This document shows, in pieces, positions 14,969-17,900 of a DNA stretch of 28,751 nucleotides (position 1 is the first letter of the stretch; the number at the start of each line of letters is the position of its first letter). The DNA is from a virus (Duplodnaviria; Heunggongvirae; Uroviricota; Caudoviricetes), in IMG/VR virus record IMGVR_UViG_2531839664_000032. The stretch is one strand, 5' to 3'. Made by a program: the position numbers.

Positions 14969-17900
14969 TGACATGAAGCCACGAAATTTTACGGCACAGC
15001 GGAATAACAAACAAATCATCAGCCTTTGTTCCCATCCCTCCCAGTCCATGACCAATGATGTGATGCGGATCATCTGCCTGATTACCGCACGTCATGCATT
15101 TCTGCGTTTTTACCCAGCGCGTGTATACAGGCATCTCTTCCCGTTGTGGTTTCTGGCGCTGGAGATACTGAGCCGGTGACTCCGGATCAACGGCAATGCT
15201 GACCACCGTCTTTTCCTGTGGCGGGTTTTGCTGGTGGGCGTGAGGCAGCGGCGCAAGATTTTTTGTGCGCTGCTTCAGTATGATGGTGGCGGTCTGCTCT
15301 CCCGGTACGATGTCGCTTTCACGGTACACTGAGCGGATTTTTTCCGCACGCAACCCCAGCGAACGACGTAATACCGCTTCCGGTAGCGCGTCCGCCACCT
15401 GATTGCGGACCGCCCACCAGGATAATTCAGCCAGAGATAATTCACGCTCCTGCGTACCGCTTATTGCGTGACCGATGACGTCAATCATCCATGCTGACAG
15501 GTTTTGATGAGCAAGTTGCTCGAGTGATTCGGATGTCTGGTCACGCAGCTGGTTGTCGCAGTGCCAGCACAACACCATTGCGCCGGTACCATAACGGTGA
15601 ATAACGGTTTCACTGTGATGATAGTCACCATGAGGCCACTGGCAGGATTTGACATGACGCAACAGCCAGTCAGACAGTGCACCAGCGCCACCAACAGCAC
15701 GAATCACACGCTCATTGCTGAAAAACGGCAGTAATGATTTATCCTCCGCCAGCGGCTGGCGAACGGCAGGGACGATGCCGGACGGCAGACCGCGCATGCT
15801 TTTCGGTTCCGGCTCCACAAGCACTCGAGGGTTATGGAATACCTGCATGGATTCACGGCCTGGTTTAAGGACCACCAACCCAAGTTCCGGTACCGGAACA
15901 GGTCGAAGTAATACCCGCACGTTACCTCCAGATGCGTTGCTGGAATGTGCGGGACGGACGCGGTGGGCGCTCGGAGTACGGCAGCCTGACGTAGATTATC
16001 CAGTGACGATAATCGAGGCTGAGGGCTTTCCTAAACTCATACCCACGTCTGCGGTAGTTCTGAATCAGCCATTCGGCCTGTTCTTCAGTGCATGGGGCGT
16101 GCCGGAACCAGTCAGATTTGAATGCATGAGAACGCCGCCCGTGCCTGCTGGCAAAGACGGCTGAATTATCAGAATTGTGTAGTCTGGAATTTTGCGCCAT
16201 CGGCTTTCTCCGGTGGCACAGTGTTACTCAACAGGGGTTCAGCCCTGCGCTGAATTGTAGATGAATTCACTAATCTTCAAAAGCAGAAAAACCAGCCTTA
16301 ATCCCAGCTTCTTTCAGAGACGGCAACGATGTGACAAATTCATTTGCACGCAAAATAAAACCATCCGTCACAAGCCCATCCACAAAATGAATTAACGCAG
16401 CTCCACTCTTCCTTTGTTGAGACTGTAAACATTTAATACGGCAGTGGCTGACAATAGCGCCCTTCTCAACGCGCACAGTATAGAGGCCATCTTCACTAAA
16501 AATTTCACGTAATTCTTCGATTCTCATCAACAGAATCCTTCCAGATAAATAGCACTCCCCTGTTCGGGGTCCATCCCTCTTCTCCCTACGCGCTACTTAA
16601 GTATTTTTGATTCTATTCCGGCGCCGTCCGGAACTTCAAACGCGTTGAAAATAAAAACAAAAACCCGCCGAAGCGGGTTAAGTGCGGGTGCGTTGAGGAT
16701 GCCTGACACATCAGAGGTGGCGAGGGATTTCTCCCCCGCCTGGTCTCTTACTCCTCAGGTTCGTAAGCTGTGAAGACAGCGACCTCCGTCTGGCCGGTTC
16801 GGATTCGTACCTCGCAGAGGTCTTTCCTCGTTACCAGTGCCGTCACTATGACGGTTAAACAGATGACGATCAGGGCGATTAACATCGCCTTTTGCTGCTT
16901 CATAGCCTGCTTCTCCTTGACCTTTCGGTCCGTAAGAGGCAATCTATATGTGACGAGCATATAGGGGCCTCACTTCGATTTATAGTCGGGTGGGGCTTTT
17001 ATCTATCTGCCGTTGGTGTTCATGCCCGAGGCAGATAGCCTCAAGCACCCGCAGCAATCCTACTTAACTCTGCCGTTACAGCAAACCGTTTTCGCCCGAT
17101 ATGGGAATTCCCATATCGGAATGAATTCAGTTCACCTGGCGAGGCTTAGCGTACAATTTTTTCCGTTTTGTGAGCTGCCCCTACATGCCGCTGGCGCGGC
17201 ATCCGGAAAAAGAATCCACGTCCTGAAGGACGAGGATGTCAAGTGCCTTTCCTGGTCCAGCCATATTTTTTGAATGCAGGCGCCGCTTCATCGGTTTGTA
17301 GCCATTCTGCAAATCGACGGGTTTCATCATTTGCATCCTGACGTACTGTAATGTTCATATCACGCCATATCACGTAGTCTGGCGCTATTTCCACGACATC
17401 ACCAATTTCTGGATTACTGGCTGCCCAGTCAGCCCAGGTTATCCAGACATCTGCTCCAGGCTGATTCTCAAGAGCCTTACGTGCAGTTCCGCTATTGGGC
17501 GCATATAAAATAATATTTTTTCGGATTGCGGCGACAGTTTCTATATTCCCTTTACGTCCGGCAATATCTTCCCAGACGCCAGTGCCTGATGTATTACTGG
17601 TACCACCACCATCATTAACAATTACGCCAATCCCAGGTCTGGTCAGGTCGTCAATACTCCGGATATTTTTAGGATTACCTTTCTTTACCAGTAAAATACT
17701 TTTTCGCAGATAAAGAGGCTGAATATCTTTTTCACTGAAGCTGTCTTTATGGTCCCGAATGATAGCCAGAGCAGATTGTTCTGATGCGCCAAACAAGATA
17801 TCTGCATTTTTTTTGGCATCTTCATTCCATTTGTTCTGTGGGCCGTAATGAACGTTCACTATAATACCTGTTTTTTCGGCATAAAGTTTGGCTGCATCAA

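Follow-up and report, generated by a model that had tools for sequence, protein, structure and literature searches.

The minus strand of positions 16660-17084 in the stretch of DNA analysed here (28,751 nucleotides, hereafter the window) very probably carries a complete hok/mok/sok cassette, located within the nin region of a lambdoid prophage of the PPompW/OI-57 type, and the palindrome upstream of the toxin gene lies outside the RNA machinery and is most simply read as a scar. A complete hok/mok/sok locus as such is of an already known kind, and is ordinary for a lambda-like prophage of pathogenic E. coli. The preliminary description of this DNA had assigned the locus to the hok/sok type and had noted that it is not embedded in a relBE operon, an assignment supported by Rfam and by homology to 933W. 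The parts of the cassette are as follows.

16748-16903, minus strand: hok (the hokD allele, "ckf"), ORF of a 51-aa membrane toxin, stop codon included (ORF list and Pfam HOK_GEF).
16748-16960, minus strand: mok, a 70-codon leader ORF with its ATG at 16960 and GAGG 7 nt upstream (ORF list; colinear with annotated mokW).
16660-17050, minus strand: predicted full-length hok mRNA of about 390 nt (5' end by homology, 3' end by the intrinsic terminator).
17057-17084, minus strand: predicted hok promoter, -35 TTGCTG (17084-17079), 16-nt spacer, -10 TAGGAT (17062-17057), read from the sequence.
17039-17050, minus strand: tac, the 5' translational-activator element, GGGUGCUUGAGG (pairs with fbi in the minimum free energy, or MFE, fold; long-range inverted repeats I7 and I5).
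17003-17038, minus strand: 5' hairpin of the hok mRNA, 9 bp with an 18-nt loop (the first helix to follow tac in the Rfam sok model).
16686-16698, minus strand: fbi, the fold-back-inhibition element, CCUCAACGCACCC (pairs with tac with one bulged C).
16662-16679, minus strand: intrinsic terminator of the hok mRNA, AACCCGCTTCGGCGGGTT followed by a T run (terminator scan).
16952-17004, plus strand: predicted antisense RNA Sok, about 50 nt long and complementary to the region of the mok start (alignment to sokW).
16917-16945, plus strand: predicted sok promoter, -35 TTGACC (16917-16922), 17-nt spacer, -10 CAATCT (16940-16945) (sequence, and alignment to 933W and the R1 type).

The hok ORF scores 81.6 bits against Pfam HOK_GEF (PF01848), for which the cut-off is 22. 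Its product is 92% identical to HokW and 42% identical to R1 Hok, while the claimed exact match to K-12 HokD holds over all 51 aa (100% identity), the two being the same RefSeq protein, WP_000813254.1. The mok ORF is in frame with hok and shares its stop codon, a layout that matches both the annotated mokW/hokW of 933W and the R1-type locus in our comparison set (L130). We considered whether mok might be out of frame with hok in R1, but this was ruled out, since the two are in frame in the R1-type locus and in 933W, and for the same reason the in-frame mok of the window is normal. The PPompW records annotate the mok ORF as a 213-nt CDS, "gef: phage maintenance protein".

The 5' end of the hok mRNA was placed by homology only, at position 1 of Rfam RF01794 and of the R1-type GGCGCTTGAGG. 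RF01794 ("sok") matches at full length on the hok-sense strand (17050-16901), with 103.9 bits against a gathering score of 59. Weak Rfam matches to isrK and rsmX at 16658-16744 were set aside, as they fall far below their gathering scores and merely cover the hok 3' UTR and terminator. The predicted mRNA has an MFE of -165.3 kcal/mol (z = -7.4), and the MFE fold recovers a closure of the two ends between tac and fbi (17050-17039 with 16698-16686), comprising 12 bp and one bulge. An inverted-repeat search likewise found the ends of the mRNA to be complementary at 9 of 9 positions, with a further 13 nt at 77%, at a distance of 326-353 nt. Projection of the fold on 15 hok loci, among them the R1 type, leaves 93.7% of cells paired, compared with 37-44% in slid controls. 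Across these loci, 21 pairs show changes in both bases that compensate each other; slid controls give 1-5 such pairs and shuffles 3.2, and none of 500 shuffles reaches the observed value. The tac/fbi pairing (helix 1) is kept in 14 of the 15 aligned loci, the exception being R1, in which fbi is misaligned. Tac and fbi are the true fold-back pair of the hok mRNA, which the preliminary description had missed; once fbi is removed, the 5' end of the mRNA is predicted to re-pair locally.

The second stem that had been proposed for the hok leader (CTATCTGCC...GGCAGATAG, 17001-17040) does exist, with 9-bp arms at 17003-17011 and 17030-17038, and both its position in the Rfam model and its covariation mark it as a genuine leader element. 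By our estimate, a few 9-bp inverted repeats at such spacing are expected by chance in 28.7 kb, so the significance of the stem comes from homology and covariation and not from the repeat itself. In the 15-locus alignment, relatives carry compensatory substitutions in this hairpin (helix 2), from AU to GC/UA and from CG to UA.

The positions of the hok promoter hexamers are kept in the UC4224, XB2 and 933W loci despite different sequence further upstream. A consensus promoter scan called neither the hok nor the sok promoter, the former falling under the threshold, and as far as the sequence goes both promoters are weak by consensus; in sok, it is the -10, CAATCT, that is weak. It had been stated that a Sok-like RNA cannot be inferred from the sequence. 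This was too pessimistic, as the alignment to sokW, the -35/-10 pair and the fold into a tail and terminator hairpin place the features of an antisense Sok in the window at the sequence level. The annotated sokW of 933W maps to 16952-17000, and the predicted Sok folds into a 9-nt 5' tail, a terminator hairpin and a U tract (-21.4 kcal/mol, z = -4.5). Compared with sokW it lacks 21 nt, owing to a deletion in the hairpin that the 933W, UC4224 and XB2 loci do not share, and the shortened hairpin together with the poor -10 could alter antitoxin output.

Three characterized systems provide useful comparisons. The hokW-mokW-sokW locus (Stx2 phage 933W / Sakai prophage Sp5, AF125520; Takada et al. 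2021, PMC8621323) is likewise a hok/sok cassette of a lambdoid prophage, with a DNA identity to the window of 85.7% over the mRNA, next to the 92% identity of the toxins. Tac, fbi, the 5' hairpin and an in-frame mok are common to both, and sok is colinear in position. The differences are the Sok hairpin, 21 nt shorter in the window, a different 3' terminator, and 1-nt indels in the mok leader that cancel out; in addition, the 933W cassette sits elsewhere in its genome and has no palindrome upstream. The paradigm of such systems, R1 hok/sok (parB), shares with the window a 5' GGxGCUUGAGG tac, a CUxUCUGCC/GGCAGxxAG hairpin, an upstream and in-frame mok, a sok promoter lying antisense within the mok leader, and an fbi near the 3' end. 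The R1 toxin is, however, only 42% identical, the Sok hairpin and 3' UTR differ in sequence, and the R1 system is on a plasmid whereas the cassette of the window is in a prophage.

The third comparison is K-12 hokD (relF, in the relBEF operon of the Qin prophage), which encodes a Hok protein identical to that of the window. At the DNA level the identity is 98.7%, over a stretch that runs from 14 nt before the ATG through fbi and the terminator to the rem side. Homology to K-12 ends at 16917, beyond which K-12 has relE. K-12 hokD thus has relE and relB in place of the hok promoter, tac, 5' hairpin, mok and sok. On comparison of the two sequences, K-12 hokD/relF and the hok of the window are one gene, rearranged in K-12 such that relBE has replaced all sequence beyond about 14 nt upstream of the ATG, and relative to K-12 the window carries an intact cassette of the ancestral type. 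The preliminary description was correct that relB and relE are absent and that a binding-protein gene stands in their place, the upstream gene on the same strand being paa/adfO:

17239-17997, minus strand: paa/adfO, an AcfC-family adhesin with a periplasmic-binding-protein fold (Pfam SBP_bac_11, 118 bits; annotated "AcfC family adhesin Paa").

This is the next same-strand gene upstream of hok. It occupies the place that relBE has in K-12, and it is not part of the toxin-antitoxin module. The gene order around the cassette is P, DUF1627, paa/adfO, hok, rem-like, DUF968. The locus is the same as adfO-ckf of O-island 57 (EDL933 z2053/z2054) and "Paa/AdfO - gef" of the PPompW prophages, and is 100% identical to E2865 and to PPompW/Stx2a phage records. 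It thus goes by the name ckf in OI-57 and "gef" in PPompW, and has its truncated counterpart in K-12 hokD. In OI-57, adfO and ckf always co-occur, the latter described as a "putative phage-associated cell-killing factor" (PMC8565820). The sources on adfO-ckf and PPompW name protein-coding genes only, and mok, sok, tac and fbi are unannotated there as RNA elements. Of 5426 complete E. coli genomes, 573 contain the identical locus together with paa, as do the PPompW phage records. Over 550 genomes have the cassette variant with at least 99% conservation and an intact hok ORF.

A mechanism can be proposed by homology to R1 hok/sok and to hokW-sokW, the latter having been demonstrated experimentally to be a pair of toxin and antisense antitoxin that depends on RNase III and Hfq (PMC8621323). 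The weak promoter would give a stable hok mRNA of about 390 nt, in which tac (17050-17039) would pair with fbi (16698-16686) to form a closed mRNA that is neither translated nor bound by Sok, with the 9-bp hairpin at 17038-17003 stacking directly on the closing tac/fbi helix. Slow trimming from the 3' end would strip fbi, and the leader would then refold so that the mok start (AUG at 16960) becomes accessible. The opposite strand (about 16952-17000) would give rise to a short-lived Sok of some 50 nt that pairs at the mok start and blocks translation of mok and thereby the coupled translation of hok, and the duplex would be cut by RNase III. If the supply of Sok were to stop, the 51-aa Hok would be made and the inner membrane depolarised. 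Sok could run out when the element is lost, when transcription is arrested or, as has been demonstrated for hokW, when the prophage is induced.

We considered the possibility that the cassette is instead an inactive relic riding along with paa, in which Hok is intact and either the regulation is broken (by the short Sok hairpin, or by a weak sok -10 or hok promoter) or the mRNA is never activated, a state that has been reported of several chromosomal hok loci. The 21-nt deletion in the Sok hairpin and the failure of the promoter scan to call either promoter fit such a relic, as does earlier work in which, as a preprint summarises it, the chromosomal hokA, hokB and hokC were unable to mediate post-segregational killing (bioRxiv 10.1101/2025.08.07.668861). 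However, all of the defining elements are present, and the mRNA resembles those of its relatives in fold stability and conservation. The short Sok also keeps its single-stranded 5' tail and a strong terminator hairpin, the variant is conserved with an intact hok ORF in the more than 550 genomes mentioned above, and the closest characterized relative is functional (PMC8621323). We therefore regard an inactive relic as unlikely, and the complete cassette as the better description of the locus.

Upstream of the cassette lies the second element of note.

17096-17119, no strand assigned: a perfect 24-bp palindrome, CCGATATGGGAATTCCCATATCGG (inverted-repeat search; single copy in the window).

The preliminary description had the palindrome as perfect and 24 bp long, as it is, but placed it at 17094-17117, 2 nt to the left of its real position. 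Its 22-nt core was found in none of 100 shuffles of the window with up to two mismatches allowed, and we estimate the chance of a perfect 24-mer palindrome in 28.7 kb at about 0.002. A search of the window found the palindrome once only, and no other hairpin centred on GGNATNCC. A literature search for the sequence returned only unrelated vector or primer matches, and searches on HK022 Roi sites and lambdoid "boundary sequences" yielded nothing usable.

The role first proposed for the palindrome was that of a fold-back element in the hok leader. Its proximity to hok and the high stability of its hairpin, with a predicted fold of -19.4 kcal/mol on either strand, fit that role. The palindrome spans -46 to -69 relative to the predicted start of hok transcription (centre at -57.5), however, and thus lies upstream of the -35 and outside the predicted mRNA, while homology to the hok family (Rfam, R1, 933W) begins at 17050. 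It has no partner elsewhere in the mRNA, the true fold-back pair being tac/fbi, and it is absent from R1-type loci, from 933W (the validated hokW-sokW) and from XB2-type loci. Only about one quarter to one third of the hok loci with the same promoter have the palindrome, and some of these copies are decayed, one of them by a 1-nt deletion in one arm. We attach almost no credence to a role in the hok leader.

Nor does it seem probable that the palindrome is an RNA element of some upstream transcript, either a terminator or a 3'-stabilising hairpin that insulates hok from read-through of paa or of the early-right operon, and we consider this appreciably less likely than the inactive relic discussed above. 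The stability of the hairpin on either strand would suit such an element, many intergenic copies of the palindrome lie 2-21 nt after a stop codon, and in UC4224-type loci a small hydrophobic ORF ends immediately before the palindrome. Against this, no U tract follows the palindrome on either strand, the terminator scan passed it over, and a separate terminator-like hairpin belonging to paa lies at 17232-17219. The lack of a T run on both strands, along with the separate hairpin of paa, led us to reject the palindrome as an intrinsic terminator. Moreover, one phage group has a separate canonical terminator after the palindrome, and what recurs in unrelated contexts is the identical stem sequence, not just the structure.

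The recurrence of the sequence points to another source. The same palindrome is found inside the ORFs of BstA-like KilA-N abortive-infection genes, at codons 57-65 of the KilA-N region, and the proteins encoded by these palindrome-bearing genes match phrog_6287 "BstA" (276.9 bits) and PADLOC BstA. Rfam assigned no family to the palindrome in the three BstA-like genes searched. In the window, a tblastn search with the 253-aa BstA-like protein recovered only a stop-interrupted fragment of 14 codons, the plus strand at the palindrome reading FSPDMGIPISE*IQ where the BstA-like protein has LSRDMGIPISELIQ; on this evidence, the window encodes no BstA-like protein and no hidden KilA-N gene. In three loci of the comparison set (L068, L074 and L085), a bstA-like gene adjoins hok in the same orientation. 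Because the palindrome occurs inside BstA-like ORFs, and because a bstA-like gene adjoins hok in these three loci, the orphan copy upstream of hok is most simply the scar of a BstA-like gene that once lay divergently next to hok.

Some observations on the flanks of the palindrome sit less easily with a scar. Both arms are intact in several flank contexts, which is not required of a simple scar, and XB2-type loci have the same left flank without the palindrome. The palindrome may be an insertion rather than a remnant.

Instead of a scar, the palindrome could be an orphan copy of an undescribed functional DNA element with dyad symmetry, native to the coding part of BstA-like KilA-N genes and a candidate cognate site, either aba-like or autoregulatory, for a KilA-N/BstA-like protein. 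We think this unlikely, about as much so as the inactive relic, although several features of the palindrome speak for it. Inside the BstA-like genes, the palindrome is kept across bacterial phyla by compensatory changes, both nonsynonymous and synonymous. Among the purely synonymous cases are Pro CCC/CCG, matched by the third base of codon 2, and a change of the centre from GGAATTCC to GGTATACC. Covariation thus extends to the centre, a pattern that fits the dyad symmetry of duplex DNA better than a hairpin loop. In enterobacterial phages, whole orphan copies stand between genes in six or more unrelated contexts, and the copy in the window is centred at -57.5 from the hok start. BstA systems are also known to carry a short immunity element in the gene region, one that is DNA-based and cognate (Owen et al. 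2021, PMC8585504). By analogy with this "aba" element, the orphan copies might let a prophage that lacks the gene titrate or escape a co-resident BstA-like protein; another possible role is to put the adjacent promoter under the control of a KilA-N/BstA-like protein.

The palindrome is not the published aba, however. The only mapped aba, that of BTP1, is a non-palindromic element of 63 bp extending from -29 to +34 of bstA, with terminal CCCGCC direct repeats (PMC8585504), and thus differs in sequence, position and symmetry. The BTP1 bstA gene has no equivalent palindrome, and only the C-terminal domain is common to its product and the palindrome-bearing family. The decayed hok-linked copies and the existence of functional hok loci without the palindrome also argue against a functional site. 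Mismatches on the sense strand number 15 G·T against 37 A·C, giving no clear RNA signature either way. The scar of a BstA-like gene remains our preferred reading of the palindrome in the window.

For the biology of these prophages, the analysis means that ckf, a marker of the OI-57 virulence island in Shiga-toxin-producing E. coli, corresponds to a complete hok/mok/sok cassette from which the truncated K-12 hokD descends. On the model of hokW-sokW, the cassette may aid lysis and phage release on induction, or it may stabilise the prophage that carries paa. In the widespread BstA-like gene family, the palindrome is preserved as a nucleotide sequence, at a cost to the encoded protein sequence. 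If it is a functional element, its free-standing copies would be decoys against co-resident BstA-like defences, or would tie neighbouring genes to that protein; and should it prove to bind a protein or to confer immunity, it would be relevant to how prophage abortive-infection systems avoid targeting themselves, and to how other phages might exploit this.

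At its hok locus the window has a complete hok/mok/sok module. The whole of Rfam model RF01794 ("sok") aligns to 17050-16901, with 103.9 bits (gathering score 59), and since this model describes the hok-sense strand up to the hok AUG, the match reports the entire hok leader. The homology has at its 5' end GGGUGCUUGAGG (17050), the counterpart of the R1-type leader start GGCGCTTGAGG, and the predicted -10 and -35 elements keep their positions in relatives despite divergent sequence farther upstream. The features of the locus and its upstream neighbor are:

17997..17239, minus strand, paa/adfO
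17096-17119, perfect 24-bp palindrome, -46 to -69 from the predicted hok start, just upstream of the -35
17084-17079, minus strand, predicted hok -35 TTGCTG, 16 nt beyond the -10
17062-17057, minus strand, predicted hok -10 TAGGAT, 7 nt upstream of the 5' end of homology
17003-17011 and 17030-17038, arms of a 9-bp stem (inverted repeat)
16952-17000, plus strand, predicted Sok RNA, at the mapped position of the annotated 933W sokW
16917-16922, plus strand, TTGACC of the predicted sok promoter, followed by a 17-nt spacer and CAATCT, upstream of the predicted Sok
16960, minus strand, start ATG of the 70-codon mok ORF, with GAGG 7 nt upstream, in frame with hok
16903..16748, minus strand, hok ORF of 51 codons, from the ORF list
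16679-16662, minus strand, intrinsic terminator of the hok mRNA, from the terminator scan

The position of the terminator implies a hok transcript of ~390 nt, the ends of which are complementary (17045-17053 with 16683-16691, 9/9, and 17032-17044 with 16693-16705). Its minimum-free-energy fold (-165.3 kcal/mol, z = -7.4 versus shuffles) is closed by a 12-bp helix between tac and fbi, the 5' and 3' elements that pair in full-length hok mRNA, and a 9-bp hairpin is stacked directly on that helix. This hairpin is the second of two leader stems suggested as fold-back elements in the preliminary description, and it is a genuine structural element: the stem is present, forms the 5' hairpin of the mRNA, and covaries across hok loci (CUAUCUGCC/GGCAGAUAG, CUGUCUGCC/GGCAGACAG, CUUUCUGCC/GGCAGAAAG). 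The fold was projected on 15 aligned hok loci: nine IMG/VR phages, three chromosomal types from E. coli, 933W, and two plasmids, one P1-like and one R1-type. Paired cells made up 93.7%, versus 37-44% with slid partners. Both sides had changed in 21 pairs, compared with 1-5 for slid partners and 3.2 for shuffles, and the observed value was reached in 0 of 500 shuffles.

The predicted 53-nt Sok (-21.4 kcal/mol, z = -4.5) folds with 9 nt free at its 5' end, then a long hairpin and a U tract. Its hairpin is 21 nt shorter than in the relatives 933W, UC4224 and XB2, and the short form co-occurs with paa. The anatomy of the locus can be read directly, and its expression, processing and killing are predicted; by homology, the mechanism would be that of the family. 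Sub-threshold Rfam matches to isrK (24.9 bits, gathering score 50) and rsmX at 16658-16744 (minus strand), over the hok 3' UTR hairpin and terminator, are weak and probably reflect mere terminator-like similarity.

The window Hok and K-12 HokD are identical, as the preliminary description had it, and correspond to the same RefSeq protein; identity is 92% with HokW of phage 933W and 42% with plasmid R1 Hok, and the match to Pfam HOK_GEF scores 81.6 bits. The mok-hok layout is common to the window, the annotated mokW/hokW and the R1-type locus. Over the mRNA, hokW-sokW has 85.7% DNA identity to the window; this toxin/antisense-antitoxin pair is partly RNase III- and Hfq-dependent and, after mitomycin C treatment, promotes both lysis and the release of phage (PMC8621323).

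The preliminary description also pointed out, correctly, that relBE is not upstream of hok and that a binding-protein gene stands there instead; this gene is paa/adfO, on the same strand as hok. In K-12, homology to the window extends no farther than 14 nt upstream of the hok ATG (16917), and relE and relB come next. K-12 hokD retains the coding region, fbi and terminator, as in the window, but is without the promoter, tac, 5' hairpin, mok and sok, all of which the window has; the point at which homology ends implies that K-12 hokD lost them. This agrees with the long-standing view, reportedly that of Pedersen and Gerdes in 1999, that hokD was inactivated by rearrangement. A hok without relBE in the window is the intact form and no oddity.

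The gene order (replication protein P, DUF1627, paa, hok, rem-like ORF, 92-aa ORF, DUF968/ydfU) is that of the nin region of a lambdoid prophage. Of 5426 complete E. coli genomes, 573 contain the 641-bp segment that runs from hok through the end of paa, at 99-100% identity; it is 100% identical in PPompW prophages of Stx-producing strains, where a 70-codon ORF is labelled "gef: phage maintenance protein" beside "Paa/AdfO". The window pair corresponds to adfO (z2053) and ckf (z2054) in O-island 57, two genes reported to co-occur invariably (PMC8565820).

Several smaller observations concern this neighborhood. Seven nt past the paa stop lies a short terminator-like hairpin, CGTCCTTCAGGACG, with a T-rich tail (17219-17232, minus strand), so the paa transcript probably has its own end ahead of the palindrome and hok promoter. 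Between DUF1627 and paa, E2865 is annotated with a small hypothetical gene and with a fimbrial-protein pseudogene that carries a frameshift, while the window has only fragmented ORFs (18000-18850); paa thus seems to have arrived together with remnants of a fimbrial cluster. In most prophage contexts a small hydrophobic ORF ending in YCLVVFLMDRLGN, AIYCLAVVLMDRLSD or GIAMAVALVVYSICRWG directly precedes hok on the same strand (L002:3496-3600 in UC4224; upstream of hok in locus L003 and of hokW in L005). Its window counterpart is deleted, with the paa cassette in its place. An IS3-family element (13430-14643, minus strand; orfA 14643..14296, HTH_Tnp_1; orfB 14176..13430, rve integrase core) apparently cuts the 3' end of DUF968/ydfU (330 aa, versus 351 aa in E2865) and occupies the position where E2865 has rusA and Q next.

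The hok locus thus belongs to a known system with a textbook family mechanism and already carries the annotations hokD, ckf and gef; the preliminary description observed it correctly and interpreted it largely correctly. Its single interpretive error, which was also the source of our side observation on BstA-like genes, was the 24-bp palindrome, proposed there as a possible fold-back element. The palindrome is perfect, although 2 bases to the right of the 17094-17117 first assigned, but it is no hok element: it lies upstream of the predicted start and -35, and sequence comparison finds none in the R1-type, 933W/Sp5 or XB2-type hokD loci. In an IMG/VR scan that used the hok promoter and tac sequence as its anchor, no more than about one quarter to one third of loci had it, and in eight IMG/VR hok loci the copy has decayed, for example through loss of 1 nt from an arm. 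Nor does it qualify as a terminator, as it lacks a following U tract and is not called by the terminator scan.

The palindrome is not hok-specific. A 50-nt probe gave 2238 matches in 877 E. coli genomes, and 75 of 121 exact CGATATGGG-N4-CCCATATCG copies sampled from IMG/VR were away from hok. Some of these lie within ~250-aa ORFs, coding D-M-G-I-P-I-S; others are found behind a P4-like primase gene, in high-GC phages, or beside terminators that follow other genes. Orphan copies occur 13-14 nt past a stop codon, after CCATACAAG and before a canonical terminator, AGGGCCTCTTCGGAGGCCTTTTT (IMG/VR loci L007, L021, L029, L031, L032, L050, L052, L073, L081, L097, L103, L121 and others); the L081 copy closely precedes a dinI-like gene of the nin region. 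On their opposite strand is a 37-aa ORF ending in KKASEEALAVDMGIPISLVW, with no Pfam or PHROG match.

The ~250-aa ORFs have a KilA-N domain (PF04383, 93.7 bits), match PHROG 6287 "BstA abortive infection system" (276.9 bits) and PADLOC BstA, and share a C-terminal domain with BstA, the abortive-infection protein of phage BTP1 (29% identity, E = 5e-15). In the stretch that codes for KilA-N, at about codons 57-65 (L131-L210), lies a palindrome of 22-26 bp centered on GGAATTCC, the sequence that the window has at 17096-17119. We compared 80 homologues from many phyla (48-100% amino-acid identity), chosen blind to the palindrome. The amino acids at the site differ (DMGIPIS, DIGIPIS, ETGIPVS, DVGIPTS, DAGIPAS, VVGIPTT and others), and the inverted repeat is preserved via matched changes (GATATGGG/CCCATATC, GATATCGG/CCGATATC, GAAACGGG/CCCGTTTC, GATGTCGG/CCGACATC, GATGCCGG/CCGGCATC, GTGGTCGG/CCGACCAC). 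Over 11 pairs, 78.9% of cells were paired (32-44% slid), double-change cells numbered 120 (43 ± 5 shuffled, 21-55 slid), and the covariation score was 0.373 (slid maximum 0.097). At one covarying pair (GC 40, CG 28), which couples Pro CCC/CCG to the third base of codon 2, one side changes in a purely synonymous way. Clearly, the palindrome is under nucleotide-level selection in its native gene. Synonymous compensatory changes (Pro CCC/CCG; GGA-ATT to GGT-ATA) and the rare codons ATA and TCG were also seen there. The center pair covaries as well (AATT, TATA, GATC), which a hairpin with a 4-nt loop would not need, so dyad symmetry of duplex DNA fits somewhat better than a hairpin. No Rfam family covers the in-gene palindrome, and BTP1 bstA lacks an equivalent. 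The BstA paper nowhere mentions a palindrome or inverted repeat, and the self-immunity element aba that it maps is a different sequence, at the bstA start (PMC8585504).

How the palindrome came to lie upstream of hok is suggested by its flanks. The window plus strand at 17086-17127 reads F-S-P-D-M-G-I-P-I-S-E-stop-I-Q, and a BstA-like protein at the equivalent place L-S-R-D-M-G-I-P-I-S-E-L-I-Q; no BstA-like gene was found in the window. In three IMG/VR contigs a 257-aa BstA-like gene directly adjoins hok/sok, divergently, its ATG ~355 nt from the hok mRNA start:

L068:4010-4690, BstA-like gene
L074:8940-9620, BstA-like gene
L085:2235-2915, BstA-like gene

Their in-gene palindrome, 528 nt from tac, agrees with the window copy in side and orientation. 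933W splits from the palindrome-bearing type exactly at the hok-proximal palindrome edge, and the paa cassette junction is 13 nt past the hok-distal edge. Perfect copies remain whole in several distinct flanking contexts, which, along with the selection seen in the native gene, would favor a function still retained, that of a site for a KilA-N/BstA-like protein acting as decoy or regulator, but we consider this unlikely. The most economical explanation is that the window palindrome would be the scar of a BstA-like gene at a mosaic junction.

As the three contigs indicate, an abortive-infection gene can directly adjoin a toxin-antitoxin module. The covarying palindrome in BstA-like defense genes, with its orphan phage copies, seems undescribed in the literature searched and merits separate follow-up.
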